Assembly: GCF_035084215.1 (NCBI RefSeq) | Contig: NW_027139623.1 | Location: 930,001 to 994,000 of the forward strand | Origin: Heptranchias perlo | Lineage: Eukaryota | Direction of reading: 5' to 3' | Length of the DNA stretch: 64,000 nt | Shown here: positions 420-49,710 of the stretch, in pieces | Layout of the letters: each line of letters starts with the position of its first letter | How positions within the stretch are numbered: the first letter of the stretch is position 1 | Notes under the pieces: generated by a model | The model's input: only the letters and a program-made list of their open reading frames with translations | Database searches by the model: none | Told to the model about the DNA's origin: nothing | Translations under genes and position numbers: made by a program

Positions 420-1100
420 CAGCTCAGAAACAGGCCTTTGGGCCCAACAGTTCTATGAAGGCGTTTATGCTGCACACCAGCCTCCTCCCTCTCTACTTCA
501 TCTAATCCCATCAGGATATCCTTCTAGTCCTTTCTCCCTCGTGTGCCCATCTAGCTTCCCTTTAAATCCATCTATGCTATTTGCCTCAACTATTCCTGTG
601 GTAGCATGTTCCACATTTCACCATGTACAAAGAAGTTTCTCCTGAATTACCTATTGGATTCATTAGTGACTATCGTATATTTATGACATCTAGTATTGGG
701 CTCCCTCACAAGTGAAAACATTATCTCTATGGCTACCTCATCATCATCTTAAAGGCCTCTATCTGGTCACCCCTCAGCCTTTTCTTTGCTGGAGAAAAGC
801 GCCCCAGTCTGTTCAGCCTTTCTTGATGAGTTGACCCACTCAGCTCTGGTATCAGCCTTGTGAATCTTTCTTGCACCTACTGTAATGAATCTATATCCTT
901 TTTATAATAAATGTAAGGAGTCGCACAACACCAGGTTATAGTCCAGGTTATAGAACAGAACTCGGCTCAATACTCCAAGTGTGGTACAACCAAGGCTCTT
1001 TACAGATTTGACTTCATTTCTTTTTAATTCTATCCCTCCAGTAATGAACCCCAGTGTTTGGTTTGCCTTTTTGTGGCCTTATTCACCGGCGTCGCTACTT
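420..1100 (-). mobile_element. CR1-type LINE 3' fragment, with a small Penelope-type fragment at about 912-953
   Basis: Degenerate CR1 3' end resembling other copies in the window; gtaaggagtcgcacaacaccaggttatagtcc resembles the PLE terminus at 1800. Confidence 0.7.
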
Positions 1101-1761
1101 TCTTTATTTTCAGATGAAGTTATCATTTCAACGTAATGCTGTTTGTGTAAAAACATGGAGGTCCCGCGATTACCAGCAGAGAAACAGGAAATCTGGAAAC
1201 ACATAGCGGGAGGACGTTTCTAAATTAGAGGGGATCGACTTCGATGGAAATGGAAATTGGGAGAAGTTTACAACGGGCGACCGAACCCAGATCGCCCGTT
1301 TTACGCCCGCTCCAAGTCGAAAGTTCCAATGCCTATTTCTGACAGCATCGGGAAATAGAAGGGACAACTTATCATTCCAGGTGTGATTCAAAGATGGCGG
1401 GTGTAACTCATGGAACCCGCACGCTGGATCAGTGAGGTCAATAGAAAATTGTCTTGTTTACATAGCAATGCTCTGCATATTCCACACATAAACCAAAAGC
1501 TAACCCTTCACGGCTATATACAGTCTACAGTCAGGTGCACAGAAGTATGTTTACACGTATGCAGATGCAATCTTGGGAACTAAACTCTGCTTTTGCCCTT
1601 CATTTCCTATAGGGGGAGCAAAGCTGCATCTCACCCCTCAAAGATTCGTGTTCCAATGAGGATCCTTTTCAACAAATCTTTTCAAAAAGATCCATTTCTG
1701 TAGTCCTTTTACGACATATTGAAATATGATTGCAAATGTATTTGGTCTCATGAATATTAAA

Positions 1762-1976
1762 TGATGTGGAGATGCCGGTGATGGACTGGGGTTGACAATT
1801 GTAAACAATTTTACAACACCAAGTTATAGTCCAGCAATTTTATTTTAAATTCACAAGCTTTCGGAGGCTTCCTCCTTCGTCACATCGTTCACCTGACGAA
1901 GGAGGAAGCCTCCGAAAGCTTGTGAATTTAAAATAAAATTTCTGGACTATAACTTGGTGTTGTAAAATTGTTTACA
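1762..1976. mobile_element. Short Penelope-like insertion with inverted (hairpin) arms and 12-bp target-site duplication
   Basis: Arms of about 80 bp are reverse complements; atgaatattaaa at 1750-1761 and 1977-1988; near-identical copies at 27.7, 48.2 and 56.7 kb. Confidence 0.8.
1888..1926 (+). ncRNA. Minimal type-I hammerhead ribozyme
   Basis: TTCAC-CTGACGA-A-GGAGG aag CCTCC-GAAA-GC-TT-GTGAA: intact core, stem I, stem II, palindromic stem III. Confidence 0.75.
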
Positions 1977-2143
1977 ATGAATATTAAAGGTTGAGACAAG
2001 GCGACTGTGATTTTAAACAAAGAACAAAGATCCTGAGAGAAAACGGTCAAATATTTGGAATCAACTTAGTAAGAGCATGAATGAGCGAGATAAATGATAA
2101 CATCAAAGTTAAGAAATAAACCCTAAGTTTATTTGTAACTTAC

Positions 2144-2184
2144 GCAGACTTTCCTCGGCTTCGTTTGTAGATTAAGGTCAGCGT
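2144..2184 (-). CDS. Cytoplasmic exon (Y)ADLNLQTKPRKVC, completes ITIM LTYADL
   Basis: tttcatttag acceptor, GTAAGT donor; 41 bp, phase 1 to 0. Confidence 0.85.
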
Positions 2185-7697: not shown

Positions 7698-7793
7698 GAT
7701 GTCATTTCCACGCTAGTTTTGATCGTTAATTACAACACGGAATGCCTTGTACTGCGGTCGGATGAACACATTCACCGTGTGAATCTCACTCAC

Positions 7794-8087
7794 CTCTTAC
7801 AGTTATATATACAGGGTCACTCTCAGCCGACGTTAGCAGCCTTCCCCACACATCCCCTTTATACAGACAGGTGTAATTTCCTCCATCGGTGTGATCTATA
7901 TTCGTGATGGTGAAAGTGACAGAATTGTCCCGTGCAGCAGTCTGGACATCCGAGTAATTCGCTTCTCGGTGTCTGTATAAGTAAAATGTGAAGCCAGGAT
8001 GGTCCCGGGGGTTTGTACAATTAAAGGTAACTTTTCCACCCTTCAAAACAAGACTAGAATCCACTGATATATTTGGTTTGGGTAGAT
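7794..8087 (-). CDS. Ig domain 6 (membrane-proximal, C2-type)
   Basis: 294 bp phase 1-1; DLPKPNIS..VTFNC..FYLY..DGGNYTC..SDPVYITV. Confidence 0.9.
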
Positions 8088-8509
8088 CTGCAATATGTAA
8101 GGAAAAAGCAGTGACAATCGATTCAACCGCAATACAGACTTATTTTTTGTGAACCAAAATATCAATGACCTGGACTTTGGTATTCAGGGCATAATTTCAA
8201 CTGTTTGCAGATGACACGTAACATAGAAGTTGTAAGCACTGAGGAGGATACTATATACAAGGGGGAAATTGCCCATTCATTAGTGGGATGAAACGGAAGA
8301 AAATAAATCAGTTGGGGTTCTATTTTCAAAATCAGCGTTTATCCCTCAAATTTCGCTCTGGGATACCAGAGGAACAGAGGGAAGGCATTGATTTGAAATT
8401 CGCATTTGTGGTAACTTAGCCGAGCCATAACCTGATTAAAAAGAATGAACGTCTCCGCTAAACAGTGGAGATTCCCATTTCAAATAAAGGAGTTAAGTGT
8501 TAGCGGGCT

Positions 8510-8815
8510 TTGGGATGTGCACAACGCTGGGCAGGCCAGCATTTGTTGCCCGTCCCTAATTGCCCATTGAGAAGGTGGTGGTGAGCCGCCTCCTTGTTGA
8601 ACAGCTGCACTCCATGTGGTGAAAGTGCTCCCATATTGCTGCTAGGTAGGGAGTTCCAGGATTTTGATACAGTGACGATGAAGGAACGGTGACATGTGCC
8701 TCAGTCGAGATGATTTATAACTTGGGGGAAAATTGGAGGTGATGCTGTTCCCATCCAGCTGCTACCTTTGTCCTTCTCGGTGTTGGAGATCTCAGGTTTG
8801 GGCGTTACTGTCGAA
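8510..8815 (-). mobile_element. LINE 3' fragment, shared with 13920-14220
   Basis: Same sequence at the equivalent position in the paralogous intron. Confidence 0.55.
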
Positions 8816-8994
8816 ATCCAACCCAGTGAGATGATATGGAAAACCAGAATGTAATTCATTAAAGTACTCCGAGTTACATGGTTATTTTGAAAATCTCGGC
8901 ACGCAGTTTCGGTTATCTGACAGAGAAACCTGTAATGTGACAAGTCCAGCCAGTTTGGAGGTGCCTCGTGAGGTGACACTACACTCAGTGGAGT

Positions 8995-10265
8995 TAATAG
9001 TAAAAAGGAAGTCAAAGGAAGGGTGGGGCCGATTAGGGACCAAAAAGGCGATCTTCTTGTGGAGGCAGAGTGCATGACTGAGATACCTTATGAGTACTTT
9101 GCATCTGTCATCACTAAGGAAGAGGATACTGCCAATGTTCCAGTAAAGGAGAAGAAACTGGATAGGATGAGAATAGATAAAGAGGAGGCACGTGAAAGGT
9201 TAGCAAAGCTCAGAGTAGAAAAGTCACCGGGTTCGGATGGGATGCATTCTAGCTTGCTGAGAAAAGTACGGGTGGAAATTGTGGAGGGATGAACCCGGCA
9301 ACTACAGGCCAGTCAGACTAACGTCGATGGTGGTGAAACTTTTAGAGACAATAACCCGGGACAAAATTAATTGGCACTTGGGAAAATATGGGTTAATAAA
9401 TGAAAGCCAGAACGGATTTGTTAAAGGTAAATCGTGTTGGACTAATTTGATTGAGTTCTTTGATGAAGTAGTGGAGAAGATTGATAAGGGTAATGTAGTT
9501 GATGTTTTATATAAAGACCTTCAAAGGGCGTTTCTAAAAGTGCCATACAATAGACTTGTTGGCAAAATTGAGGCCCATGAGATTAAAGGGCAGTGGATGC
9601 GGGGATACGTAATTAGCACAGAGACAGAAAGCAGAGAGTAGTGGTGAATGGCTGATTTTCAAACTCGAATGAAATGTGCAGTGGCGTCACCCAGGGGTCG
9701 GTGTTGGGACCGCTGCTCTTTTTGATATATGGTAATAACCTGCACTTGGGTGCACAGGGCATAATTTCAAATTTTGCAGGTGATACGAAACATACAAAGA
9801 AGTGAGGAGGATGGTCACAAACTTGAGGAGGACATAGACAGGCTGTTGAAATGGGCAGGCACGTGGCAGATGAAAGTTTACACAGCGAAGTACGAATTAA
9901 TTCATTTTGGTAGGAAGAATGAGGCGAGGCAATATAAACTAAATGGTACAAGTTTAAAGGGGGTGGGGGAACAAAGAGACCTGGGGGTGTACATTCATTA
10001 AACTTTTAAGGTGGCAGGACAAATTGAGAAGGCCGCTAAAGGGGATACTGAATTCTTTATAAACAGACTTACAGGATACAAAAGCAAGGAAGTTGTGCTA
10101 AACATTTACAAAGCACTGGTTAGGCCCCTGCTGTAGTATTGCGGCGAAATCTGCGCACCACACTTTAGGAGGGATGTCAAGACCTTAGAAAGGTACAGAG
10201 GAGATTTACTAGAAAAGTAAAAGGGATGAAAGACTTCAGATAAGTGGAAAGACTGGAGAAACTGA
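8995..10265 (+). mobile_element. CR1 LINE ORF2 (RT) fragment, frameshifted
   Basis: KSPGSDG, PGNYRPVRLTS, QNGFVKGKSCWTNL and RDLGV motifs in broken frames. Confidence 0.9.
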
Positions 10266-11275
10266 GGACGCTAAATTAGGCCGTGTAGTGCCCGTTGATT
10301 CGGCGCTATGTGGCCTCTCCAACATCTAAGATGGCGTCTTGCATGCGAACGCACATTTGCAGTGTGATGTGCACCAGATGCCATCTTGGTATTGGAGTTA
10401 GCAGTGGGCGAAGATTATGAAGCCGGAATCATGTAAAGTAGGGAGAAAATGGCTTCAATCAGTGTGCAACGATGATTTAGAGTGATAAACACCATTTTGG
10501 GACTTAACGCACAACTCAACGCACAGTCTTAACCCCGACCATCTGAACGTGTCTAAGATTGCCTGGAGGACACTCACCGGCGCTATTTAAAGCGACCATG
10601 CAGGATATACAAATTAGTGGCTGGATTATTGTTACTGGCTGCCGAGACATTTGTAACTGTTCTTGGAGACTCTCCCACTCTTGAATACTAGGATGCAGGG
10701 ACATGGCCTAACATTTAGAGCAAGGGCGTGTTGGAGTGAATTTAGGAAATGCTTCTACATGCAAAGGGTGGGAAACAGTTCGAATGGTATTCTGCAGACG
10801 GCAGTTGATGCTGGCTTACTTGTGAAAGTTAATTCTGAGATTGATAGATTTCTGTGAACCAAGGGTATTAAGGGATATTGGGCTAAGGCAGGTATATGGA
10901 GTTCGGTCACAGGTCCACCGTGATCTCATTGAACGGCAGAACAGGCTCCATGGGCTAAATGCCACCGCCACTTGCTGCTTCCTGATATGCAACATCTTCT
11001 CCTGCAAGAAAGTGCGACGCGTGTCTGGATGACGTGCCTGTCATGGTTGAATAGCTGCCAGTGTGTGTGAGCAGTGATTTGTTAGCCTGCGCTAACTCCT
11101 ATACTAAAATAGCGTCTGGCGCACATCACGCTGGAAACGTGCGTGAGCATCCAAGACGCCAACTTGGATATCGAAGAGGCCGTGTCGGGCCGAAACAATG
11201 GGCGCTACACGGGCCGAAACAATGGGCGCTACAGGAGCCGAAACAATGGGCGCTACACAGCCCAATTTAGCGCCC
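10266..11275. mobile_element. Non-autonomous DNA transposon with long terminal inverted repeats, a nested CR1 3' end and a 3x24-bp duplication in the right TIR
   Basis: ggacgctaaattaggccgtgtag at left vs ctacacagcccaatttagcgccc at right; complementarity extends about 135 bp. Confidence 0.75.
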
Positions 11276-11633
11276 GAACCCTCCCCTTTCCGCCGGGCGT
11301 GTTCGTTTAAAGTTATTCTCCAACTATCACCCTGGGTTGTGAGGTAAAGTTTTAGTCGGGATTGATATCATAAATTTCTGACAGTGGAATATAAATCCGT
11401 CTGAGGCGGAGGCCTGAAACGGGCGATCGAGCACATTTTATACTCCACAGATTTTAAACACCACCCAATTATCATTTCCATTGAAGTCAATGTAAAGAAA
11501 AACCGGAAGAGATGAGAAACGCTCTGCCGATTCACTATCGTCCGTTCTACGATAACGCATTGTCATAATCTACCCCTAATGCTGTTGAATAGATATTTCA
11601 ACAATCTCTGCTCCTCCCGCCCCTTTCACTCAC

Positions 11634-11927
11634 CTGCGATAGTGAACCTCACAGCCTCGCTGAGCTGGGACCAAAACTGCCTTCTATTGACGGAGGTTCC
11701 ATATTGACAGTGGTAGCTCCCTCCTTGGTCTGTTCCGGTGACTCTGAATGTTCCAATGTTGTCCTTTGTGATGATTTGATGAGAGTTCAGAAGTCGGCGA
11801 TCTCTGTAAAAATGGAAAGTTTGATCGCGATAGTCTCCGGCCACGGTGCAGGTAATGGTCACCGTCTCTCCTTTCAAATACACGCCACTTGGTTGATCAG
11901 GGGATATCCGTGGCTTTTTCGGCGTAT
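11634..11927 (-). CDS. Ig domain 5
   Basis: 294 bp phase 1-1; GETVTITC..FHFYRD..DQGGSYHCQY. Confidence 0.92.
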
Positions 11928-12456
11928 CTATGGTAAAATAAATGGAAAGAACAATTGGAAATGGATCTGTGGATTAAGTTACGGTGGAAGTTTGGGAACT
12001 CCATACCGATTGTGTGGTGTTGAGTGGAAATGTTTGTATCGGCGGCTGAAATTCGACAAAACGGGAATTGACCATTCATTAGTGGAATCAAACTGAGGTG
12101 CGAGAGAAAATAAATCAGTTTGTGGTTCTATTTCCAAAATCAGGGTTTAGTCCTGAAATTGCACCCTGCGATACGAGGGGAACATGGACAATGCGCTGAT
12201 TTGAAATTCCCATTCTTTGTCATTTAGGCTATGGTGCAAACCGGATATCAAAGAGTGAACTTCTCTGCTGAACCGTGGAGATTGGAACCTCAAATAAAGG
12301 AGGGAAGTGATGGTCGATTTTTTATTTATCATTCTTGGGGATGTGAATCAATGACATCACTGGATCTGAATATCGGATCGGGCTGATATCAGACGACAGG
12401 TCCGATCCCGCCCGTCTTACACAACTGCCCGTGGCGGATTTCTAATCAATTTTTAC

Positions 12457-13095
12457 TGAGACCTGTCAGGAGCAGAGCGCCGATACTTTGTGAATATTAA
12501 GCAATGTTACAAAGGCCCTGTTTGGAGCTGAACGTAGAGTTCCTCCCTCAGAATATTAAACACTGTTAGAGAGAACATTTCACGAGCTGAGCGCAGATTC
12601 CCTCTCTGACTATTATTCGCTGTTGCAGAGACCCTGTCAGGGGTTGAGCGCAGAGACCCTCACTTTGAGCATTAAACAATGTGACAGAGGCCCTGTCAGG
12701 GGTTGAGCGCAGAGGCCCTCACTTTGAGCATTAAACAATGTGACAGGGGCCCTGTCAGGGGTTGAGCGCAGAGGCCCTCACTCTGAGTATTAATCACTGT
12801 GACAGGGACCCTGTCAGGAGCTGAGCGCAGAGACCCTCTCTGTGAATATTAAACACGGTTACAGAGACCCTGTCAGGAGCTGAGTGCAGACACCTTCCCT
12901 GTGAATATTAAACACTGTCGGAGAGAACTTGTCACGAGCTGAGCGCAGAATCCCTCTCTGTGACTATTAATCACTGTTACAGAGACCCTGTCAGGGTTTG
13001 AGCGCAGAGACCCTCACATTGAGTATTGAACACTGTTACAGAGACCCTGTCAGGAGCAGAGCGCAGAGACCCTCACTTTGATATATGAACAATGT
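12457..13095. repeat. About 60-bp intronic minisatellite, roughly 10-11 copies
   Basis: Unit gagaccctgtcaggagctgagcgcagagaccctcactttgagtattaaacactgttaca. Confidence 0.9.
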
Positions 13096-13113
13096 ATATT
13101 CCCCTTCACTCAC

Positions 13114-13407
13114 CCGCTATAGTCACCGTCACAGCCTTGCTGCGCTGGGACAGTAGCCGTCTTGTTTTGACGTAAATTCCATATTGGCAGTAGTACTGCC
13201 CTTCTTGGTTTGTACTGGTAACCGGGAATGTTCCGCTGTTGTTCTCAGTGGTGATTTGACCAGAGTTCAGCAGTTCCTGCTCTCTGTAAAAGTGATATGT
13301 TTGATCGCGATTTTTTCTGCTCACGGTGCAGGTAATGGTGACCATCTCTCCTTCTACATACACACCACTCCAAAGATTAAGAGATATCCCTGGCGTTGTT
13401 AGCGGAT
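13114..13407 (-). CDS. Ig domain 4
   Basis: 294 bp phase 1-1; GEMVTITC..YHFYRE..QEGQYYCQY. Confidence 0.92.
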
Positions 13408-15111
13408 CTATGACAAAATAAATGGAAAGAACTATTAGAAATGGATCTCTGGCGTTCCCTTGTACACTGGAAGGTTGGAGACTCAATAACGATTGAGCTG
13501 TGTTGACGGGAAGGGTTTGCATCGCTGACTGGGGTTCTACAAACGTGGGATTCTGGATTTGTTTCACAAGAAACACCGAAAGACTTGCATCAATATCGCG
13601 CCTTTCACCATCCCAGGACTTCCCAAAGCGATTACCAGCCAATGAAGTACATTTGAAGTGTAGTCACTGTTGTAAAGTAGGAAATCAATTGGCAGCACCA
13701 CAGCTGGGGTTCTCTTTCCAAACTCAGGGTTTAGGCCAGAAAATGTACTTTGGGATACGAGCGGAACAAGGAAAATGCTTGATTTGAAATTCCTATTTCT
13801 GCTAATTTAGCCCAGGTGAGAACGCAGATAGAAAGAGTGAACTTCTCCATTAAACCGGGGATTCGCATTTCAGATAAAGGAGTTTTTTGGTGTGGCCGAA
13901 ATACGTTCTTATCATACAGAGGTGGCCGTCACAGGCAAGGCCGGCATTTATTCCCATCCCTTGTTGCCCTTGAGAAGGTGGTGGTGAGCCGCCTTCTTGA
14001 ACCGCTGCAGTCCGTATGGTGAAAGTTCTCTAACAGTACTGTTAGGTCGGGAGTTCCAGGATTTTAACCCAGTGACAATGAAGGAACGGTGGTTCTTGTA
14101 AAAATCAGGATGGCGTGTGACTTGGAGGGGAACGTGCAGGTGGTGTTGTTCCCATGTGCCTGCTGTCCTTGTCCTTCTAAGATGGTGGAGGTCGCGGGTT
14201 TGGGAGGTGCTGTCGATATAGGGAAAGCCACAACGTATTTAAGTTAAAGCAACCCCCAAAACAGGTTCATTTTTAAAATCTCTGCACGCAGTTGCGGGTA
14301 TCAGACTGAAAATTTGCAACGTGACAAGAGCAGCCAGTCTGGCAGAGCCTCATGAGGTGACTCTACACTCAATGGAGTTAGAACCCCGGCGCTGTGCTCT
14401 TATTATAATATTAAATTGTTCGCTCTGTTAATTGAGACCTGTAGGGTGTAAAATTGGAAATCAGGAACAGAGGTCATGTAATAATATCACACAACCTACA
14501 TTGTTTTGTTTATCGAAGGTCTTGCGTTCACATCTTCATATTTATTCTCTGGCCAACTGCTGAAATGAACGCCATCACCTCTGGAATTCTCCAGTTCCTC
14601 AGCACGGAGTTAAAAAGGACAATTTTAACACAACCGGCATTGTGGGAGTTGGATAAGTTCTGTCGACCGCCCGTTTAAAACTCTGACCGATTTTACGCTC
14701 CATTAAAGTCACTTGGGGCAAAATCGGGAAGAGTTTAAACAAGTGGCAGACTCGAAACCGCCTCTTTTCCGCCGGGCGTGTTCAGTTAAAATTATTCTCG
14801 AACTATCGCCTTGGGCTGTGAGATGAAGATTTAGTCGGGATTGATATCATAATTTCTGACAGTGGAATATAATTCCGTCTGAGGCGTAGGCCTGAAACGG
14901 GCGATCGAGCACATTTTATACTCCACAGATTTTAAACACCACCCAATCATCATTTCCATTGAAGTCAATGTAAAGAAAAACCGGAAAAGATGAGAAACGC
15001 TCTGCCGATTCACTATCGTCCATTCTACGATAACGCATTGTCATAATCTACCCCTAATGCTGTTGAATAGATATTTAAATAATCTCTGCCCCTCCCGCCC
15101 CTTTCGCTCAC

Positions 15112-15405
15112 CTGCTATAGTGACCGTCACATCCTCGCTGTGCTGGGACCATAACTGCCTTCTATTGACGGAGGTTCCATATTGACAGTGGTAGCTCCCT
15201 CCTTGGTCTGTTCTGCTGACCGTGAATGTTCCAATGTTGTCCTTTGTGATGATTTGATGAGAGTACAGCGTTTGGCGATCTCTGTAAAAATGGAAGGTTT
15301 TATCGCGATAGTCTCCGGCCACGGTGCAGGTAATGGTAACCGTATCTCCTTTCAAATACACGCCACTTGGTTGATCAAGAGATATCGCTGGCGCTGTTAG
15401 CGGAT
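15112..15405 (-). CDS. Ig domain 3
   Basis: 294 bp phase 1-1; close paralog of Ig5. Confidence 0.92.
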
Positions 15406-16157
15406 CTGTGGTAAAATAAATGTAAAGAACAATTAGAAATAGACCAGTGGACTAAGCGTACGGTGGAAGTTTGGGAACTCCATACCGATTGTGCGGTATT
15501 GAGGGGAAATGTTTGTATCGCCGGCTGAGATTCGACAAAACGGGAATTGACCATTCATTAGTGGAATCAAACTGAGGTGCGAGAGAAAAGAAATCAGTTT
15601 GTGGTTCTATTTCCAAAATCAGGTTTTAGTCCTGAAGTTGCACCCTGCGATACGAGGGGAACATGGACAATGCGCTGATTTGAAATTCCCATTCTTTGTC
15701 ATTTAGGCTATGGTGCAAACCGGATATCAAAGAGTGAACTTCTCTGCTGAACCGTGGAGATTGGAACCTCAAATAAAGGAGAGAAGTGATGGTCGATTTT
15801 TTATTTATCATTCTTGGGGATGTGAATCAATGACATCACTGGATCTGAATATCGGATCGGGCTGATAACAGGCGGCCGATCCGATCCCGCCCGTCTTACA
15901 CAACTGCCAGTGGCGGATTTCTACTCCATTTTTACTGAAGAACGGGCGGTCGAGCATCTGCAGCTCATTTTATACTCCACCCGTTTTATACACCACCCAA
16001 TTATCATCTACTTTGAAGTCAATGGAAATAAAAATCAGGAGATATGTGAAACAGCCTGCCGATTCACTATCATCCATTCTACGCGAGCGCACAGTCAAAA
16101 TCTACCTCTAATGGTGTTGAATAAACATTTTCCTAATCTCTGCACCCCTTCACTCAC

Positions 16158-16451
16158 CTGCTATAGTGACCGTCACAGCCTCGCTGATCTGGGACCATAA
16201 ATACCTTCTATTGACAGTGGTTCCATATTTACATTGGTACCGCCCTCCTTGGTCTGCTCTGCTGACCTTGAATGTTGCAATGTTGTCCTTTGCGAGGACT
16301 TGATCAGAGTACAGCGGTGAGCTACCTCTGTAAAAATGGAAGGTTTTATCGCGATAGTATCCGGTCACGATGCAGGTAATGGTAACCGTCTCTCCTTTCA
16401 AATACACCCCAGTCGGTTTATCAGGGGATATCCTTGGCGTTGTTATCGGAT
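16158..16451 (-). CDS. Ig domain 2
   Basis: 294 bp phase 1-1; GETVTITC..DQGGRYQCKY. Confidence 0.92.
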
Positions 16452-16904
16452 CTGTGGCAAAATGAATGGAAAGAACAATTAGAAATGGATCTGTGGATTA
16501 TGTGTACGGTGGAAGTTTGGTAACTCAATAACGATTGCGCTGTATTTTCGGGAACAGTTGGAATCGATGGCTGAAGTTCCTCAAAACGGGAATTAACCAT
16601 TCATTAGTGGAATCAAACTGAGTTGCGAGAGAAAAGAAATAAGTTTGTGGTTCTATTTCCAAAATCAGATTTTAGCCCTGAAATTGCACTCTGCGATACG
16701 AGGGGCACATGGAAATGCGTGGATTTGAAATTCCAATTTCTGGTCATTTAGCCTGTGGTGCAAACCGGATTAAAAAGAGTGAACTTCTCTGTTAAACCGT
16801 GGAGATTAGAATCTCAAATAAAGGAGGTAAGTGATGGTGGGCTCGATTTCATCATTATCATTCTTGGGGATGAGAATCAATGACCTCACTGGGAGTGAAT
16901 ATTG

Positions 16905-17260
16905 AGCTGAGAGCGTGCTGCACCGTCACATGTCCCGTCTTTCAGATGAGACGTTAAACCGAGGCCCCGGCTGCCGTCTCAAGTGAATGTAAAAGATCCC
17001 ACGCCACTATTTCGAAGGAGAGCAGGAAAGTTTTCCCTGGTGTCCTGAGCCAAATATTTATCCCTCAATCAACACCACTAAAACAGATTATCTGATCATT
17101 ATCACATTACTGTTTGTGGGGCCTTGCCGAGTGCAATTTGACCGTCGCGGTTCCTGCATTATAACAGTGACTGTACTTCAAATGTACTTCATTGGCTGTA
17201 AAGCGCTTTGGACGTCCAGAGGTCATAAAAGGCGCCAACTAAATGGTACTTCCTTCTTTT
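16905..17260 (+). mobile_element. Deu-domain SINE (SacSINE1-like), 5' truncated; a shorter minus-strand fragment lies at about 13545-13700
   Basis: ctttcagatgagacgttaaaccgaggcccc..taaaagatccc..aatatttatccctc..cattggctgtaaagcgcttt matches the DeuSINE pattern as recalled. Confidence 0.7.
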
Positions 17261-17699
17261 ATTCAAAAACTGTGGCTGTTTTCCTTGTAACAAAGGAGAA
17301 TGGGGGTAATTTAGTGGCCGTTTTTAAATTTCAGAAGGGTTGGAACCGAGTATAGAGACACAGGCGGTTTCCGGGAGCCCGAACGAGTGGAGATTGATAA
17401 GTTAAAAATGGTATTTCGGGCAGGGAGTAGGAGGGACATTTTAAAGCAAGTGTTGCGAGGCTGTGGAATGAAGCAGAGACCATGTCAACATTTAAGAATA
17501 GGTTCGATCGACGGTTGAAGGGAATTGGGAGCAGAGCACGAACATGGGATTAGGGCTATTGCTCGTGTGGAGGATAAACACCAACACGAAGTGGTTGGGC
17601 CGAACGGCCTGTTTCCGTGTTGTAATTTCTCCATAATCTGTATGACATCCTTGTATTCCTCCAGCAACCGACTGGAATCAGACAAGCAGAATTGCAGCT

Positions 17700-18290
17700 G
17701 TCTTGCACATTTTAGTTTAAGAATCTCTGCGAAGAGAAATATGTTCAACGTGCATAGAACTTTAGTTAGACCACACTTTGAGTGCTTTCTACAGTTCTGA
17801 TCTCCATATTACAAAAAGGATATCCATATTACACTGGACAGGTGCAAAGCGATTTATTGGACGATTCGAACACTGAGGGGATACTGAACTGCCTGGGACC
17901 CTTTTCTCGAGAAAACAGAAGGTTTAGGGGTGACCTGATTGAGATCTTTAAGATTATGAAGGGATTTGATGCGGTAGACGGAGAGAAAATGTTTCCACTT
18001 GTGGGCGAGACCAATACTCGGGGGCCATAAATATAAGAAATTCACCAATAAATCCAATAGGGAATTCTGGAGAAGCTTCTGTGCCGAAAGAATGCTAAGA
18101 ATGTGGAACTCGTTACCACAAGTAGTAGTTTAGGCGAATAGTATTGATGCATTTAAGGGGAAGCTAGATTAATACATGAGGGAGAAAGGGATAGGGTGGA
18201 GGAGGCGCTTGTGGAGCATAAACGCCGGCACGGACCTGTTGCGTCGAATGGCCTGTTTCTCTGCTGTAAATTCTATGTAATCGTAGGAAA
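17700..18290 (+). mobile_element. CR1 LINE 3' fragment
   Basis: RTLVRPHFE and RFRGDLIEIFKIMKGFD motifs. Confidence 0.85.
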
Positions 18291-19063
18291 CGAATCTTGT
18301 CCAATATTTTTATAAGTCTTCCCATTGGCTCTTGGTTACAGTATTCTCCAGCTACAGTTAACTGTGAGTCACGATTCATTCCTAGACGTTTGTGTTTAAA
18401 ACAATTAAAACTCTGCAAACAATTATCCAACTTTTAATATTCAGTTGTGGCGATGTTATTGGAATGAAACTTGTCCAATGACAGTGCAATATGCGGCCGG
18501 GCATTTTCACCAAATTAGCTGCTCTGTTTTCTGTTTAGTTTCTGTGAAGTGCGGCGTCTATTTACCTGTTCACAACGAATCATTGAATCTTATAGCACAG
18601 AAGGAGGCCATTCGGTCCATCGTGCCAGTGCAGACTCTTTGAAAGAGATACGCAATTAGATCAACTCCCACCGCTCTTTACCAATTACCTCTGCATTTTT
18701 TTCCTTTTAAAGTATATATACAATTTATTTTGAATGTTATTACTGAACCTGCTTCCACCATCCTTTCAAGCGGTGCATTCCAGATGACAACTCGCTGCGT
18801 AAAAATAATTTCCTCATCTCCTACCTGGCTCTTTTGCCAATTACCTTAAACTGTGACCTTTGTTTGCCGAACCTTCTGTCAGTGGGAACAGTTTCTCCCT
18901 ATCTACTCTATCAAAACCCATCATCATTTTGCAAATCTCTATTGAATCTCCCCTTATTCATGTCTGCTCTAAGGAGTACAATCATATCTTATCTAATATC
19001 GCCACATAACTGAAACATTTGCCTCGTTGTAAAGTTGCAAAAACCCTGCCCTGTCTCACTCAC

Positions 19064-19347
19064 CTGTTACTATTACTGGCGCCGAGTCACTGAACGAGGA
19101 CCATTTCCATTCCCCGTTAATCCGATAACTATACCGGCACTGGTAATCTCCTTGATCATTTCTGTTGGTGTTGCAATTTGATACACTGTGCTGCTAGTGG
19201 AAAATTGCAGTTCGTTCCCATCTTTGTAAAAGGCATAATTGCCACTCCGGTATTTTTTGTCGTCAAGGCAGTTAATCGTGATGGTTTCTCCGGGTAAGTA
19301 CACGCCAGTCTCTTCATTCATGATAATTTCAGGTTTCACCAGAAGTT
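19064..19347 (-). pseudogene. Ig domain 1 exon with a 1-bp frameshift
   Basis: 284 bp, not a multiple of 3. ELLVKPEI..GETITINC..FYKDG is in one frame and NDQGDYQCRY..SDSAPVIVT in another; the shift lies near 19160-19165. Confidence 0.85.
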
Positions 19348-19509
19348 CTATGTAAAAAAGACATTGACCGTCAATGAGCAGTTACCAACAACGCACGTTG
19401 GCGGCTAAGCGGTACAGAGAATGGGAAACTGGGCGCTGCTCTCCCAACCAACAGGAGAACATAGATCAGTTTGTGTTTGCTTATGAGCATAAAACTACAG
19501 AGCTATTTG

Positions 19510-27429: not shown

Positions 27430-28260
27430 GTAGTCAACTTGAAATTGTAGTAAGCAGTGAGGAGGATAGTGGCAGACTTCAGACAGACTGGTAATAAAAT
27501 GGGCAGAAACATGGCAGATGACATTTAATACAGAGAAGTGTGAAGAGATGCATTTTGGGAGGAAGAATGCAACGAGGCAATATTAACCATATGGTGCAAT
27601 TTTAAAGGTTTTGCAGAAACAGAGAGACCTGGGGGTGTATGTACACAAATCATGAAAGGTGGCAGTACAAGTTAATAGATCTGTTCAAAAAAATTATAGG
27701 ATCGATGGCTTCAAAAATAGACATTTACCTGACGAAGGAGGAAGCCTCCGAAAGCTTGTAGATTTCAAATAAAAATTGTTGGACTATAACTTGGTGTTGT
27801 AAAATTGTTTACAATTGTCAACCCCAGTCCATCACCGGCATCTCCACATCATTTAAAAATAGAGGCAGAGAGAAAAGAAGCAAAGAGGTTATGCTAAACA
27901 TTTATAAATCATTGGTTTGACCGCAGCTGAAGTGCTGCGTCCAATTCTGGGCACTACATTGTTGGAAGGCGGTCAAGACCTTACAGAGGGAGCAGTGGAA
28001 ATTTATTGGAATGATACCAAGGATAGGGAACGTCAATTAATTGGAGAGACTAGAGACTCTGGAATTGTTCTCCTTAGAGCAGAGAAAGTTAAACGGTGAT
28101 TTAATAGAGGTGTTCAAAATCATGAAGGGTTTTGATAGAGTAAATAAGGGGAATATATTTGCACTGGCAGAAGAGTCGGTAGCCAAAAGGTACTGATTGA
28201 AATGAATTGGCAAAAGAACCAGAGGCGAGATGAGGAGAATTTGTTTTTGCAGTGAGGTCT
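27430..28260 (+). mobile_element. CR1 LINE 3' fragment interrupted by a PLE insertion
   Basis: Degenerate CR1 ORF2 C-terminal sequence on both sides of 27722-27854. Confidence 0.75.
27722..27854 (+). mobile_element. Penelope-like insertion with hammerhead at 27724-27762; 9-bp TSD aaaaataga
   Basis: TTTAC-CTGACGA-A-GGAGGaagCCTCC-GAAA-GCTT-GTAGA; TSD at 27713-27721 and 27855-27863. Confidence 0.8.
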
Positions 28261-35200: not shown

Positions 35201-36659
35201 ATGTGACTCTGATATTGAGTTGGTTTACTATCTCATATCCCCCTGGTAACGACTGTGAGAAAGAAAATACCACTTCCAGCTTTCTCCAACCGCCAATTTC
35301 AAACCGTTTATCGATAATGGAACCAAAACACAGCGCTCCGCACAAACCCTGACAGACTCGGGATTCATATTCAAGGATTCCCAGAAACACGGAGCTTTTA
35401 AATAAACCCCGTTACAATTAACAGTCAGTAATATTCCTGCCTAAATACAGTCCCTGCTCTCACAAGTCAACCCGCCTTCTTCCATTTCAGTTCCAGACCC
35501 GATTCGATCTCCCTACACATCCCCTCCCAGACGGGTTCAGCAGTTTAAAAACACCTTATTCCAGCTGATTTGGAGAATCTCATGTGTTGGTGTTTGAGTT
35601 GTGACGCGGAGTTTCTCCGCCAGTGTTACAGTCTCACAGACACTCTCGCCCTGAATCTGTAAAAAGAAAATAACCGTGAACTGGGCCTGGAGCCGAACAC
35701 ATCCCCAGTTACAGTGAGGCCCGGACACCCCATTCTCAGTGTTTTATATCAGACAGTCTCCCACCTTCATGTTCAGCACTAGAGAGAGACAAACACACAC
35801 TGTCCGTCTCACACTTCCAATCGGTGTGTCTATATCACGCTTGCCAGCATTATCCAACCTACATACACAGCACCAGAGACAGACAGACAGACACGATGAG
35901 AGAGAGAGATAGAGAAAGCGGAGAGACAGAGACAGACAGACATACACAGTATCAGTTCCAGACTGACCTGTAAAGTTGCGTTTTATCCAGAAAGATCCCA
36001 TTGTTGAGAAAGAAGGTGCAGTCTCATCTCTCACTGTTATTGTACCAGAGACAGACACATTATTAATCCCACACTTCGGGACAGTGCAGAGAGTGAAAGA
36101 ACAATGGACGACATTTAACCCTCTTTTGCCTGTTCTACCATCTGCAGTTATGCAGCTCAGGGCCGTTCGGCATTATTCTCAGTAGAGCGAGAGTTTCACT
36201 CCGGTTAAATTAATCTATGACTTTTGCTGTCAGATATTAATCCGACACGGTCCCAACAAACACACCGACTCACTCTTTCCTCACATGTTTCTCCAGGATT
36301 GGTTTGAGAAATGCTCGCATCAGTTTTATCAGTAAAGAGTACGAGAATGAACAAAATCCAGAGACCCATTTCAGAGCCGCCCACTTTATCTCTGAAAGAC
36401 TCTTTACCATCAGAAGATTCTGAGAGAAACAGCAGGGATGGAAACATCTAGTTTAATAGTTAGAGATTGTAAAGTCAGTCTGGATTCCAGCGTTAGGCAC
36501 TGGTGGAATCCCATCTGTTTTCCATTCTGGTGCCTGTTCCTGCACTGCCTGTGGACCCCATTCCCTCTGACCTTTCCCCCAGACCCACTTCCTTTGCTCA
36601 GACTCTGAAAAATTCCAATTGGGGAAAGTTTCCATCGATTTTTGTATTGGGAATTAAAC

Positions 36660-37056
36660 CAGATATCTGCGCATGCGTGACTCAGCCCCGCCCCCAGCGC
36701 TGGTCGTTGGTGAGCAGAAGAGCGCATGCGCGCTGCCCTCCCCCAGCTCGGCCTGTGGGCGCCATTCCCTCAGTGAGCGGAAGAAGATGGTTTAAAACAG
36801 CCGGGAATGGAGAGATCACGGCCCCCGGGGGAAGGGAGCAAAGAGCAGCCTCGTTACAGCAGCTCATCGCTTCGGGACCGTGTCCGCAGATGGGCTCAGA
36901 GATCGGCATTGAGTCCGGGGGAAGGTCAGGGGGAGTCCGGGGGCTGTTTGTAAGAGGCGGAGTGGATCAGGAACTGGTCCCGGAACATGGAGTGAGCGGG
37001 GGAAGGGAGAGGTCATTCTCGGGCTGTGTGTGTCCAGGGTGTGTCCAGGGTAAGGG
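36660..37056 (+). promoter_or_regulatory. CpG-island promoter/first-exon-like element, copy 1
   Basis: Two NRF1-type GCGCATGCG motifs, GC box, TGACTCA, CGGAAG, AAGATGG; donor-like GG|GTAAGG at about 37050. Confidence 0.6.
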
Positions 37057-38049
37057 GGACAGAATGGGAAGAACCTGATATTTAAAATCATTGCTGCTTT
37101 CTCTCCCCAAACCAGGAGTGAATGGTCCTGGTTTAGTTCCAGTCTCACCCTGTTTATTGTTATTGGACAGTGAAGAGTGGAAACAGAGCCGGACAGTAAG
37201 GATGTGGGGAGTTATACAAAGAGCATCAATTGCAGGCATTAGGTGAGAAGTGTGAAGGACACATTTTGAACAGCGGCTGTTTGGTTTCATTTGAACGGTT
37301 AGTCCCGTGGGAGAGGGGATTAGAATCCTGACCTGTACAAACGTCCCTGCCCCATCGGGTAGTCCCATTCATGTGTTAGTGGAGGGGTTGGGTTGTGTCT
37401 GGATGTCAATACATTGTTGTAAAACAGCCCAACAACCTGGTGTGCAGAAGCTGGGTGCTGCAGTACTGCAGTGGAGTCAGACACTGACACTGTTTGAATC
37501 GCTGATTTACATTTATGGATATTCAAAATAATTATTAACAGATATTAAACTGATCACTTCTGTATTTTCTTCATCACCTGTTCTTGAGTTACCAGACATA
37601 CGTTTCTTTCTACAGGCAAACCCTTGAAGGATCCATAATAAATGTGATGTTTCCTCCACCCGAGGCACAAGGAACAGTGCAGTCAGCTCCTTCTCACACA
37701 CAGTAAGTACATTATCACACACAGAGCACGGAGTCACAGACAGGTCAACAGTTCCACAGTCTCAGACAGCAGAAGTACTCAGTCCCACAATGATCCCAAG
37801 TTCCAGAGACACATTTTCAATCCACAGTCAAACAGAACAGGTGAGGCAGACACTGTTCCATTTCCCCCGAACTCAGTCCCGCTGACAGGGAGATACAAAA
37901 ATCCAAGTCCAAAATCACACTCTCAGATTGTCTATCTCACAAAGGGGCAACATTAGCCATGAATTAAATACCAGATAGAAATCACACATGGTACCCGATT
38001 GAAAGGTACAGAATGAATCCCAATAACGTTCCTCGAGATTCCTATTGAA

Positions 38050-41000
38050 TTCGAGCCCAGAACTCTCACACACATGTGAGTTTAATACATGCAGTATCCA
38101 TTCAAATAGTGTACCATTCGAATACAAATTGCTAGTGCAAAACTCACGTACAGTATCAGATTGAGAAATGCTGTGACAGTGTAACCTGAGAAACAAATTA
38201 GATACCAGTTTATAATACACTCATAGTATGAGATTAAAAGATACTGTATCAATTCTGTTCATCCAGACCGAGATACACATTACACACGAGTCCAAAAATC
38301 TTATGAAACAAAGTTTAAAGTTACAGTATCAATTCCTTTAGTGCAGACTGATCTACACATTAAATACCAATTCACAATATCATTTTGAAAGATTCATTAT
38401 CATTCACAATAGTAATCACAGAAATACACATTTAATACGAGTCCAAAAAGCACACAAATTATCTGATTGAAACTTCCAGCATCAAATCCTAAAGTGTATC
38501 CATTAGGACCAATTAAATAATGTGAAAAACTATTTAAACATTAAGACATTAAAGCTACAGTATTGAACGCCATAATGTAATCTGAGAGAATAATTCCATA
38601 CAGATACAGAATGAATCTTACACTCAGATACAGTACAGAGACACACAGATACAGAATGAATCTCACACTCACATACAGTACGAGAGGTTGCCAGACATAA
38701 ATTCAATCCCACACTGAAGTACGGTACAAGAGATGACAGATACAGAATGAATCCCACACTGGCCATACAGTACCAAGGACTGACAGATATCAAGTTCATC
38801 CCACACTCTCATAAAGCACTCGAGACTTACAGGTAAAGTATGAATCCCACATTCACACATAGTACCAGAGACTGACAGATACAGATTGAATCTCACACTC
38901 ACACACAGCACCAGAGACTGACAGATACGGAATGAATCCCACACTCACACACAGTACCTGAGAACTGCAGATATAGAATGAATCCCACACTCACACACAG
39001 TACCAGAGACTGACAGATACAGAATGAATCCCACACTCACACACAGCACCAGAGACTGACAGATACAGAATGAATCCCACACTCACACACAGTACCAGAG
39101 ACTGACAGATACAGAATGAATCCCACACTCACACACAGTACCAGAGAATGACAGATACAGAATGAATCTCACACTCACACACAGTACCAGATACTGACAG
39201 ATACAGAATGAATCCCACACTCACACACAGTACCAGAGAGTGACAGATACAGAATGAATCCCACACTCACACACAGCACCAGAGAATGACAGATACAGAA
39301 TGAATCCCACACTCACACACAGTACCAGAGATTGACAGATACAGAATCAATCCCACACTCACATACATTATGAGAAACTGCTTATATGGAAATAATTCAA
39401 CACCCACACACAGTACTAGAGAATGTATATACAGAATGAATCCCACACTCAAATTGAGTACCAGAGAGTGACAGATACAGCATGAATCCCAAACTCACAT
39501 GCAGTACCAGAGACTGAGAGATGCAAGGTGAATCTCACAGTCACCTATATTCGTGCAGGCTGAGTTACAAATTACTTACCAGAGCAAAAATCTCACAGTC
39601 ACAGATTGAAAGATAACGTATCAATTCCATCAATGCAGGCTTGGTTGCACATTACGTACCAGTCCAAAAATCTCACAGTGTCAGATTGAAAGATACAGTG
39701 TCAATTCCATTAATGCAGACTGAGCTACACATTAGAAACCACGACAACAAAACTGTTACAGATTCAGACTGAAATATACAGTATTCTATTCATGCAGACT
39801 GAGCTCCACATTATATACAAGTTCAAAAATGTCACCATATCAGTTTGGAAGATGCACAAATTCACAATTGTTTTCCCATCGATACAGATTTAATAGTAGT
39901 CCAAAAATAGATGCCCACATTATCTGATTATATCCGACAGCATTACATTTTAAAATATATCATTATCTACTAATTAAAGACTGGGAAATAATATTCATAC
40001 ATTAAGGTTTTAAAGATACAGATTTGAACACCATACTGTAAACGGAAATACAAATTAGATACAGATAAAGAATGAATCTCACACTCCGATAGAGTGCCAG
40101 AGACTGATATATGGAATGAATCCCAAACTCATACAATCTACCAGAGACTGACAGATTCAAAATGAATCCCACACTCACACATTATCGCACAGACTGACAG
40201 ATACAGAATTTCTCTCACTGATCCACAGCATCAGAAATTGTTAGATACAGAATGAATGTCTCACCCACACACAATACTAGAGACTGACAGATACAGAATG
40301 AATCCCACACCCACACACAATACCAGAGACTGACAGATACAGAATGATTCCCACACTCACATAGAGTACCAGGAACAGAATGAATTTCACTCACATACAG
40401 TAGCAGAAACTGACAGATACAGAATGAATATCACAGTCACATTACTGCAGACTGAGTTACACTTTACAGACCAGTCCAAAGATCTCCTGGTGCCAGATTG
40501 AAAGATACAGTATAAATTCCATTAGTGCAGACTGAGCTACATATTAGATATATTGGTAAATACTCAGTATTATACTGAAATAAATAGTATCAATACCATT
40601 GGTACAGACTGAGCTACACATTATATACCAGTCCAAAAACCTCATAAATGAGCAGACAGGAAGATACAGTTTCAATTCTATTCGTACCGCCTGAGCTGTA
40701 CAATACATACAAGACTGAAAATCCCATACAACATTAGACTGAAAGATACAGTATCGATTTCATTAGTGCAGACTGAGCCACACATTATATAGCAGTCCAA
40801 CAATCTCATATCCTATCAGACTCAAAGATACAACATCAATTCCATGAGCACAGACTGAGCTACATGTTACTCACCAGTCCTAAAATCTCAGAGAATCAGA
40901 TTGAAAGATTCAGTATCACTTCCATTTTTGAAGACTGAGCTACACATCACATTCCAGTCCAAAAATCTCATACAGTATCAGACTGATAGATAGAGTATCA

Positions 41001-43130
41001 ATTCCTTTAGTTCAGGATGAGCTACATATTGCTTACCAGTCCAAAAATCTCACACAGTGTTCGACTCCGATACAGAATTAGTCCCATTATTGCAGACTGA
41101 ACTACACATTACATACCAGTCCAGTAATTTCACCATGAACAGATTGAAAGGTACATTGTCATTCACAATAGAGTTTAGAGATTAATATGTATTACTACTC
41201 CAAAACTCACACACATTCTTTGATTAAAGAAAATCAAAAGAAATCCATATTTACAAATTAAATAATCAACGGAGAACTATATATAATTTAAAGTATTAAA
41301 GATACAGTTTCAAATAAGATACTGTAAACTGAAATAAGAATACAGAATGAATTCAGACTTGCACATTTTCTCAGAGACTGAATTACAGAATGAATCCCAC
41401 ACTGAGATAAAGTTGCAGAGAATGGCAGATACAGAATGAATCCCACATTCACATACAGCACCAGAGACTGACAGATACAGAATGAATCCATCACTTATAT
41501 ATAGTACCCCTGAGACTCACAGATGCAGAATATACACCAAGCTCACAGTCAGTACCAGAGACTGACAGATACAGAATGAATCCATCACTTGTATATAGTA
41601 CCCCTGAGACTCACAGATGCAGAATATACACCAAGCTCACAGTCAGTACCAGAGACTGACAGATATAGAATGAATCCTACACTCACATACAGTACCACAA
41701 ACAGAATGAATCTCACTCACGCACAGTATCAGGGACTGACAGATATGGAATGAATCCCACACTCACCCACCATACCAGGAACAGAATGAATCTCACTCAT
41801 GCACAGTACCAGGGGTTGACAGATAAAGAATGAATCTCACACTCACAAACAGTACCAGAGACTGACAGATACAGAATGAAGCTCACACTCACATACAGTA
41901 CCAGAGACTGACAGATACAGAATGAATCTCACACTCACAAACAGTACCAGAGACTGACAGATGCAGAATGAATCTCACAATCACATTACTGCAGACTGAG
42001 TTGCGCATTACATACCAGTCCAAAAATCTCATCGTGTCAGATTGAAAGATACAGTGTCAATTCCATTGGTGCAGACTGAGCTGCATATTCGATATATTGG
42101 TAGTACTCATGTTATACTGAAATAAACATTATCAATACCATTGGTACAGACTGAGCTACACATTACATTCGAGTCCACAAACCCCATAAATGATCAGACT
42201 GGAAGGTATAGTTTAAATTCTATTCACACCACCTGAGCTAAAATTAAATAACAGCCCAACAATCTCATACAATATTAGACTGAAAGATACAGTATCGATT
42301 CCGTGAGTGCAGACAGGGCCACAGATTATATAGCAGTCCAACAATGTCACAACATATCAGACTCAAAGATACAATTTCAATTCCATTAGCCTAGACTGAG
42401 CTATATGTTACTCACCAGTCCAAAAGTCTCTCACAGTGTTAGACTCCGACACAGAATTCATCCCATTATTGCAGTCTTAGCTACACATTACATACTAGTC
42501 CAATAATTTCAACGTGAACAGATTGAAAGGTACATTATCATTCACAATAGATTTCAGAGATTAAGATGTAATACCACTCCAAAACTCACACACATTGTTT
42601 GATTAAAGAAAATCGAAAAGTGCATCCATATTATCAAATCAAATACTCGACAAAGAACTGTATATAATTTGGAGTGTTAAAGATACATTTTCAAGTACGA
42701 TACTCTGAACTGAAATAAGAATATGGAATGAATTCAGACTTGCACATTGTCTCAGAGACTGAATTACATAATGAATCCCACACTGAGATAAAGCAGCAGA
42801 GAATGGCAGATACAGAATGAATCCCACTCACACTGACAGTACCATAGACTGACAGGTACATAGTTAATTCCACACTCACGCACAGCACCAGAGACTGGCA
42901 GTGATGGAATTAACCTCACACTGACATAAAGCACCAGAGACTGTCAGATACAGAATAAACTCCACTCTCATATACAGTACCAGAGACAGACAGACAGGTA
43001 CAGAATAAACACCACTCTCAAAAACGGTACCAGAGACAGACAGATACAGAATAAACCTCACTCTCATATACAGTACCAGAGACTGACAGATACAGAATAA
43101 ACCCCACTCTCATGTACAGTACCAAAAACT
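38050..43130. repeat. Compound satellite: four modules of [about 82-bp array, AT-rich linker, 46-bp array]
   Basis: 46-bp period measured at 38975/39021/39067; 82-bp unit ccagtccaaaaatctc..gactgaaagatacag..gcagactgagctacac. Confidence 0.9.
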
Positions 43131-43409
43131 GACCTCTACTGGACGTAAGCGAGAACTGTAAAAAAGCGGAACAAATTCACATTATCTGTCGTGGTTGCAG
43201 AAACAGGACAGTGTGCAATGTGAGGAAAGTTTCTGTCTGTAACTTTTACTCTCGTATTTTTGCACATTTTGACGGTGAAACATGAAGACAATTGATTCAT
43301 AATAAAGTTTTTCTTTCACTCATTCGATAGTTGTGAATTTGCCCCATTATATTTCACTGTACATTGCGCAGTGTTTCTCTCTGATTTCCCACGACACGAT
43401 TTAAATTGC

Positions 43410-49299: not shown

Positions 49300-49674
49300 A
49301 TGCCTGAGGACAAGAAAGCAGCTCCCAAGAAGGGCGCCAAGAAAACCTTGAATAAAGCACCAGCCAAGGGCGGCAAGAAGCGGAGAAAGTCGAGGAAGGA
49401 GAGTTACTCCATCTACGTCTACAAAGTGATGAAGCAGGTTCACCCCGACACCGGCATCTCCTCCAAGGCCATGAGCATCATGAACTCCTTTGTGAACGAT
49501 ATTTTCGAGCGCATCGCGGGTGAGGCTTCCCGCCTGGCCCATTATAATAAACGGCACACCATCAGCTCCCGGGAGATCCAGACCGCCGTGCGCCTGCTGC
49601 TGCCCGGGGAACTGGCCAAGCACGCCGTGTCGGAAGGGACAAAGGCGGTGACCAAGTACACCAGCTCCAAGTAA
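49300..49674 (+). CDS. H2B: Histone H2B (replication-dependent)
   Basis: [22 protein letters not shown]; intronless; 3' stem-loop. Confidence 0.98.
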
Positions 49675-49710
49675 AACTCAACAATGCACTGAAAAAAAAA
49701 TAAACACAAA

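Follow-up and report, generated by a model that had tools for sequence, protein, structure and literature searches.

Short hammerhead-bearing inserts in a Heptranchias perlo locus, read as end-pieces of a Penelope-like retroelement

What the hammerhead ribozymes of Penelope-like elements (PLEs) do, and how the inverted arm and tail of PLE insertions arise, are described as questions that are still open (PMC8557442, PMC11167929). Minimal hammerheads are reported from the pLTRs of metazoan PLEs (Xena, Poseidon and Neptune of fishes, coelacanth, Xenopus and turtles; PMC4209133). Both questions meet in the 64,000-nt stretch of Heptranchias perlo DNA analyzed here (the window), in which four short inserts carry such a motif. 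The first-pass annotation took them for members of a ribozyme-processed retroelement family. Were these copies made through the action of the ribozyme, or do they only carry it along?

Four inserts with a minimal hammerhead motif

Minimal type-I hammerheads had been claimed at 1888, 27724, 48316(-) and 56784, and the motif could be read at each of these positions: in copies 1 to 4 the first base of stem I is 1888(+), 27724(+), 48316(-) and 56784(+), with C3 of the core at 1893, 27729, 48311 and 56789. In 4/4 copies the order is stem I, CTGACGA, an additional A, GGAGG/CCTCC, GAAA, AGCT and T. The core, whose conservation across copies had been named as decisive, is intact in every one, and all four share the features of the minimal form, namely this core, the extra base 9/10.1, the G10.1-C11.1 pair and a palindromic AGCU as the remnant of helix III. 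Core bases are numbered, and cuts predicted, as is usual for hammerheads. The motif spans 1887-1927(+) in copy 1 (stem II 1901-1905/1909-1913, predicted cut 1921/1922), 27723-27763(+) in copy 2 (predicted cut 27757/27758), 48317-48277(-) in copy 3 (predicted cut 48283/48282) and 56783-56823(+) in copy 4 (predicted cut 56817/56818).

The family pattern gave 4 matches in the window and 0 in 100 dinucleotide shuffles, and a generic scan for the hammerhead core (stem II of at least 5 bp) gave 5 matches, versus a shuffle mean of 0.11 and a maximum of 1. The fifth match, at 22699(-) inside a LINE relic, has a 5-bp stem II, is otherwise unlike the family and lies within chance. Taken alone, the 41-nt motif folds into stems I and II in copy 1 (z -2.44; 4 of 200 shuffles equally good) and in copy 2 (z -2.17; 6 of 200). 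An Infernal-type check, which had been suggested for this motif, failed to recover it: no Rfam hammerhead family appeared among the 12 window matches at E up to 5, nor in the three metagenome relatives described below (L001-L003). Rfam hammerhead models expect a helix III.

All four inserts lack an ORF and are pieces of 120-230 bp, each with the minimal hammerhead motif and each flanked by a target-site duplication (TSD) of its own, of 12, 9, 13 and 5 bp, as the first-pass annotation had it; the repeats are exact in copies 1-3, and that of copy 4 is established by an empty site. Copy 1 lies between 12-bp TSDs at 1750-1761(+) (92% A+T, its final base fitting the element too) and 1977-1988(+). 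Its inverted 5' arm at 1761-1882(-), antisense pLTR that runs from the tail end (tail 1761-1796) to U4 of the core, meets a tail-less sense arm at 1880-1978(+) through a TCA microhomology (1880-1882), and this sense arm has one substitution relative to the other arms. Copy 3 is oriented the other way, with a tail-less sense arm at 48225-48330(-) and an inverted 5' arm, with tail and again reaching U4, at 48328-48452(+); together they form a perfect inverted repeat of 86 bp around a 17-nt loop, between 13-bp TSDs at the 3' end (48214-48226(+)) and the 5' end (48453-48465(+)) of the element. Copies 1 and 3 are head-to-head palindromes, with arms of 85-86 bp and loops of 11 and 17 nt, a structure that is absent from the first-pass annotation.

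Copy 2, a member of a second subfamily, is a sense pLTR with tail (27722-27852(+), tail 27817-27852) between 9-bp TSDs at 27713-27721(+) and 27855-27863(+); the left one may also be read as 12 bp from 27710, with one mismatch. It sits within one of the RT-type LINE relics of the window, and the LINE homologue near 10 kb, in a loose alignment, is without the insert. Copy 4 is a tail-less sense pLTR (56756-56875(+)) with a fold-back piece at its 5' junction (56741-56755(-)), in which 56745-56755 is the reverse complement of 56763-56773, and its 5-bp TSDs stand at 56736-56740(+) and 56874-56878(+). The best exact repeat returned by the repeat-finding script at this copy was another 6-mer, not the 5-mer. 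At the paralogous empty site (~36.29 kb), however, the 5-mer is single, and the duplicated segment (36325-37097 versus 56928-57700, 95.9% identical) is free of the insert, which confirms the 5-bp TSD of copy 4 and makes the insertion younger than the duplication. The full segmental duplication that supplies this empty site spans 36008-37434 and 56476-58011, is 80-96% identical, and contains open frames, 193 and 248 codons long, that match nothing in Pfam.

Comparison of the arms qualifies the description of these copies as near-identical: it holds for copies 1, 3 and 4, whose five arms show 0-1 differences per 85 nt, and does not hold for copy 2, a separate subfamily with 92-96% identity to the others. 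The six arms end at two discrete 3' sites 36 nt apart, three arms at each, and the 36-nt stretch between them is the tail, which is carried on the inverted arms of copies 1 and 3 and, in sense, on copy 2, and is missing from copy 4. The inserts thus display the variable TSD length of EN+ PLEs (5-13 bp), their optional tail of 30-40 bp (36 nt on 3/6 arms) and, in 2/4 copies, their inverted 5'-truncated copy, to which copy 4 adds its 11-bp fold-back. The TSDs are 60-92% A+T, versus 57% for the window; the arm ends overlap the TSD edge by 1-2 nt, and the AT-rich targets make this overlap weak as evidence. None of the four copies is inserted within a microsatellite, 0 of the 36 tandem-repeat rows in the window overlap a copy, and the nearest copies on the same strand are 26 and 29 kb apart. 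The stop of the inverted arms at U4 was rejected as a fixed position, since it is seen in 2/2 window copies but other loci join elsewhere, and an initiator-like TCA at the 5' starts was discounted because the region is TCA-rich.

It might be asked whether inverted repeats of 85 bp are instead the terminal inverted repeats of a MITE-like DNA transposon, or fold-back chimeras introduced by assembly. Such an origin is extremely improbable, even though copies 1 and 3 are near-perfect palindromes between TSDs: the TSDs vary in length from 5 to 13 bp, two copies are without a long inverted arm, the arms are unequal by the tail, and the joints differ among loci. Moreover, four DNA runs contain 0.89-0.91 of the words sampled from 1300-2500 (one sample, possibly the source of the window).

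The surroundings of the inserts are varied. A series of Ig-domain exons at 7786-19381(-) resembles shark Fc-receptor-like or KIR-like genes and is partly duplicated; one of these exons is 98% identical to a H. perlo protein, and 12/12 of its matches are sharks. A compact histone cluster at 49303-54940 holds H2B, H2A, H3, H4 and H1 with five matches to the histone 3' stem-loop, and copy 3 lies ~0.85 kb upstream of H2B. Minisatellite blocks at 38600-46355 and 59847-63806 are built of 46-, 82- and 39-bp units with a strong strand skew. If transcribed, the palindromic copies would be expected to form double-stranded RNA of 85 bp near the immune-receptor-like and histone genes.

A young family and its likely parent

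Four public runs were aligned to window positions 1600-2150 at 85% likeness. DNA run X4, which may be the window's own sample, placed 19,189 contigs on this interval, 7,579 of them at 99% or more, and the summed depth was ~0.9-5.9 million over the element versus ~55-270 on its flanks, values that are not a copy number. The claim of a recently active, abundant family is supported in the sense of a young PLE family of high copy number with a minimal hammerhead in its terminal repeat. In X4 the tail end forms a sharp boundary: 97 contigs have loose ends at 1761 and 45 at 1762, and the flanks are unrelated (agreement 0.36-0.38). Across other loci the inverted joints fall at many positions, indicating that the palindromes are made anew at each insertion. 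At copy 1 itself, none of the 15 joint rows listed, out of 66, skips the copy, which speaks neither for nor against polymorphism. The match of X4 record 15 (window 1977-2100) begins exactly at the right TSD of copy 1, is preceded by 59 unplaced letters and shows 10 differences, and this record is possibly an empty allele or a paralogue.

Variants at 5% or above were found at seven positions of the inverted arm, all of them downstream of the cut in sense terms. In none of the 4 runs does the hammerhead show a variant at this level, versus 5 variable sites in the next 17 nt downstream; its loop is equally invariant, so that youth accounts for part of the missing variation. A trace of greater age is found at 909-946(-), where a 38-bp relic of a related family, the 3' part of a pLTR without the hammerhead, lies in AT-rich DNA and ends at the tail-less end position. 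A similar older variant is seen as loose ends at 1932 in X4 and in X5, a run that may be RNA.

Runs X9 and X11 reach beyond the inserts: their contigs extend at least 255 letters upstream of the motif, and this upstream sequence differs from the tail. Loose ends in X11 match the 5' part of copy 4 and continue upstream, while others in X9 and X11 match the start of copy 2, and matches to two different copy starts indicate two or more subfamilies. The X11 upstream sequence also led us to reject a tail-to-head circle, which had been considered from a 4-nt overlap between the tail end and the 5' start of copies 3 and 4. Both runs are labeled as other organisms, two in all, and each yields few such contigs (19 and 12, at low depth), although the pieces are near-identical (104 nt, 0 differences; 82 nt, 1 difference); these may stem from related species, from carried-over DNA or from horizontal transfer.

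No ORF is attached to any of the four copies, as expected of truncated copies, and tblastn searches of the window with 153 and then 136 PLE-like proteins returned no PLE ORF and one weak LINE RT match. The link to a PLE ORF on which the first-pass annotation had staked its reading is suggested by relatives. A wider pattern recovered 3 metagenome loci (L001, L002 and L003), while the narrow metagenome scan, viral contigs and prokaryote genomes gave 0 matches each. In L002, a contig of low coverage with unrelated-looking flanks that is possibly chimeric, a GIY-YIG ORF ends ~210 bp before a module that is 78-79% identical to the window's over 72-76 nt, and the likeness includes a downstream block outside the search pattern. 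This GIY-YIG end matches the protein P0008 (tblastn E 6e-14) and shares 18/21 residues with P0166 in the last block. In L003 the end of an ORF with CX4CxxC and GIY-YIG lies upstream of the module, so that two relatives carry it behind a GIY-YIG ORF end; L001 has an inverted RT fragment.

P0166 is a H. perlo protein of 643 aa with an RT, a CX4CxxC and the same C-terminus as the metagenome proteins. Its cluster at 90% identity has 54 members, 40 of which were read, and the 15 listed are all from H. perlo. Judged by sequence, P0166 is likely the parent of this pLTR. A CX2-5CxxC linker, which PMC8557442 gives as the mark of Neptune/Nematis and as missing in Poseidon, is present both in this candidate parent and in P0001, the protein of the relative L003. 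The parent is thus likely a Neptune-type EN+ PLE, a clade name taken from the linker motif and the vertebrate host. The Pfam GIY-YIG model did not score on P0001 or P0166 and did so on their relatives P0017 (E 5e-6) and P0047 (E 1e-4). Searches with P0001 gave 2 uninformative matches among PDB sequences and, as a pattern, 4 and 34 matches in viral and genome contigs, none of them confirmed. Read-through of a H. perlo protein into the pLTR was rejected, the one weak match among 136 proteins being a turtle protein. Two H. perlo gene models, P0237 and P0290, join pieces of a PLE ORF to epn2 and DIPK2Ab isoforms and are probably annotation chimeras or exonisation, and two PLE-like proteins, P0111 and P0217, carry an OTU-like cysteine protease domain.

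The relatives also allow the stems to be compared. In the window and metagenome motifs together, 95.5% of the cells of stems I and II pair, 3/11 pairs are changed on both sides, and 5/500 shuffles reach as high a percent-paired score; the set amounts to 4 distinct sequences, with L001-L003 chosen by a pattern that fixes the core and most of stem II, so that stem I is the independent part of this covariation. Stem I of copy 2 differs from that of copy 1 with its pairing kept. Folds of the whole module are ordinary (z -1.4 to +0.2), and a 3' helix, TGGAC/GTCCA, is conserved in 4/4 sequences at a level not above shuffles (140/500). Another helix, of 6 bp, pairs the block after the AATAAA-like signal with the tail (48377-48428(+), 27781-27832(+), L002 and L003); it is kept in 4/4 with one two-sided change, again not above shuffles, and is a candidate for a stem-loop at the RT start site.

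Ribozyme processing and the route of insertion

If the copies were products of the ribozyme, as in the model of Cervera and de la Pena 2014 (PMC4209133), a hammerhead dimer would cut a tandem precursor, the unit would possibly be circularized, and the processed RNA would be copied. Cleavage of minimal hammerheads as dimers is attributed to Lunse et al. 2017 in the summary given by PMC6765202. The motif itself suits this model, with its intact core, the described extra base, the G10.1-C11.1 pair, the palindromic remnant of helix III and the absence of variants of at least 5% in 4 runs versus 5 sites in the 17 nt downstream. Two 41-mers also co-fold at -32.3 kcal/mol, versus -13 each, with the AGCU palindrome paired, in a minimum-energy dimer that swaps stem II for intermolecular pairs.

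The ends of the copies point the other way. Measured from the predicted cut, the sense arms of copies 1-4 start 42, 36, 48 and 62 nt further upstream and each inverted arm begins 28 nt upstream, so that no copy starts at the cut (0/6 arms); likewise, neither a sense start at 1922 nor an inverted end at 1854 occurs among the joint rows listed (15 of 66 and 12 of 44). All six arms cross the predicted cut, no copy has a tandem partner, and the palindromic copies cannot fold the hammerhead: in full-length transcripts, stems I and II are predicted to pair with a probability of 0.0 for copies 1 and 3, 0.95-0.98 for copy 2 and 0.14-0.34 for copy 4. For the anole Poseidon, PMC11167929 reports that hammerhead mutants left insertion unaffected and that no RNA reads ended at the cut. 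Ribozyme processing of these copies is not supported, and we consider it improbable. Because RNA that is cut and re-ligated into a circle would also give copies spanning the cut, the claim of the first-pass annotation is unsupported rather than disproved. The hammerhead is likely a passenger in these four copies; selection likely acts on it in the parent element, in which helix III could come from a tandem partner.

How, then, were the inserts written? Very probably they are 5'-truncated pLTR end-pieces of a Neptune-type PLE, written by its RT-GIY-YIG protein into AT-rich DNA from RNA that the hammerhead had left uncut. The endonuclease would nick both target strands, 5-13 bp apart, and reverse transcription would begin at either of two fixed internal positions of the RNA, ~36 nt apart, the choice of site giving a tail-less or a tailed 3' end. 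The cDNA would stop 7-33 nt upstream of the hammerhead core, and repair of the nicks would create the target duplication. In copies 1 and 3 both nicks would have been primed, one per start site, and the two cDNAs would have been joined via a 3-nt TCA/TGA overlap, producing a head-to-head palindrome with a tail on one arm. In vitro, the anole Poseidon is reported to nick AT-rich DNA, to extend both strands and to use two internal starts that bound the tail, with uncut RNA as the main substrate (PMC11167929). Two internal start sites of this type account for the two 3' ends seen here, although the mechanism is taken from Poseidon, a different clade.

The loops of the palindromes bear on how the arms were joined. 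In each of the two (copies 1 and 3) the tail-less arm extends further 5' than the tailed arm, which stops at U4, and the loop reads in sense on the strand where the tailed arm is antisense. Fold-back from the tailed site would give an antisense loop and fold-back from the tail-less site no tail, and the arrangement therefore fits two cDNAs. The 5' junction of copy 4 is an 11-nt snap-back, which indicates that fold-back synthesis also occurs here; both routes seem to be in use.

The stop of the cDNA upstream of the core may be plain truncation, or run-off at the start of the transcript if the 5' pLTR of the mRNA served as the template. We tentatively raise a more specific reading, possible though somewhat doubtful, in which the inserts are strong-stop-like stubs: RT would start at the two pLTR sites on the uncut 5' end of the mRNA and run off its start, just upstream of the hammerhead, each subunit of a dimer priming one target strand at its own site. 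Were this true, tens of thousands of near-identical shark copies would record twin priming by a PLE RT in vivo, and the hammerhead would mark the 5' end of the transcript, rather than defining the template by cleavage.

A short template could also belong to a self-propagating non-autonomous element, SINE-like or a monomer of a non-LTR retrozyme, in which the pLTR transcribes short RNA templates that are mobilized in trans. The starts of the four sense arms, just upstream of the core, fall within 26 nt of each other, the family is young and of very large size (7,579/19,189 X4 contigs at 99% or more), and monomeric pLTR-derived retrozymes have been described, also in one chondrichthyan (bioRxiv 10.64898/2026.07.22.740005). 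We nevertheless judge this very unlikely, given that no copy has tandem units, that the 5' ends differ (-7, -13, -19 and -33), and that the X9 and X11 contigs run at least 255 letters upstream into non-tail sequence with no tail-to-head junction seen. If the short template were the 5' end of the parent mRNA, this alternative would merge with the explanation that we prefer, that of end-pieces written from uncut PLE RNA.

With this locus a described PLE class gains a young shark family of very high abundance, and the idea of genomic copies as ribozyme-cut products is corrected. The thousands of contigs with at least 99% identity are a dataset in which 5' and 3' ends, loop orientation and TSD length can be counted, and genome-wide counts would distinguish twin priming from fold-back, and random truncation from run-off of the transcript.

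Comparison with known systems

Every feature of the inserts is already described for EN+ PLEs. A literature search found no paper on Penelope elements in Heptranchias, and repeat libraries may still record the family. The motifs are like those described by Cervera and de la Pena 2014 (PMC4209133) in their type-I core, extra base 9/10.1 and G10.1-C11.1 pair, in the palindromic 15.2-16.2 without helix III, and in occurring mostly as dispersed single motifs from truncated elements. Distinctive here are a helix II of 5 bp and a hexanchiform shark as host; the very low sequence variation resembles that of D. virilis and differs from that of most families in that account.

EN+ PLE insertion units are described as an inverted 5'-truncated copy with a tail of 30-40 bp (PMC8557442, PMC3846280), and the present inserts resemble them in that the inverted arm adjoins the 5' end and the tail is at one end only, and in their TSDs (8-10 bp in the rotifer examples), junction microhomology, palindromes and solo pLTRs. 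The whole insert here, unlike those units, is pLTR only, at 120-230 bp. The targets here are AT-rich unique DNA, in contrast to the microsatellites of the units in the same two sources, and Neptune is said to favor microsatellites (PMC8557442). Two cDNAs account better for the loop orientation than the antisense self-priming put forward in 2013 (PMC3846280).

The Poseidon element PAc of Anolis carolinensis, as described in PMC11167929, likewise targets AT-rich DNA, has two 3' ends with an AC-rich tail between them, and leaves copies that span the uncut hammerhead. Its hammerhead overlaps the start of the ORF, whereas in the relatives of the present copies it follows the ORF stop, and the Neptune/Nematis linker CX2-5CxxC, which Poseidon is without, occurs in the candidate parent. 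With the non-LTR retrozymes (bioRxiv 10.64898/2026.07.22.740005) the inserts share a non-coding, pLTR-derived sequence, a type-I hammerhead and a vertebrate host; those retrozymes are described as tandem units, while the copies here are single or head-to-head. Identity with them was rejected, with no head-to-tail units in the 36 tandem-repeat rows and X11 upstream sequence that is not tail. Set against all of these systems, the four inserts are an ordinary but very clean example of probable PLE end-pieces.
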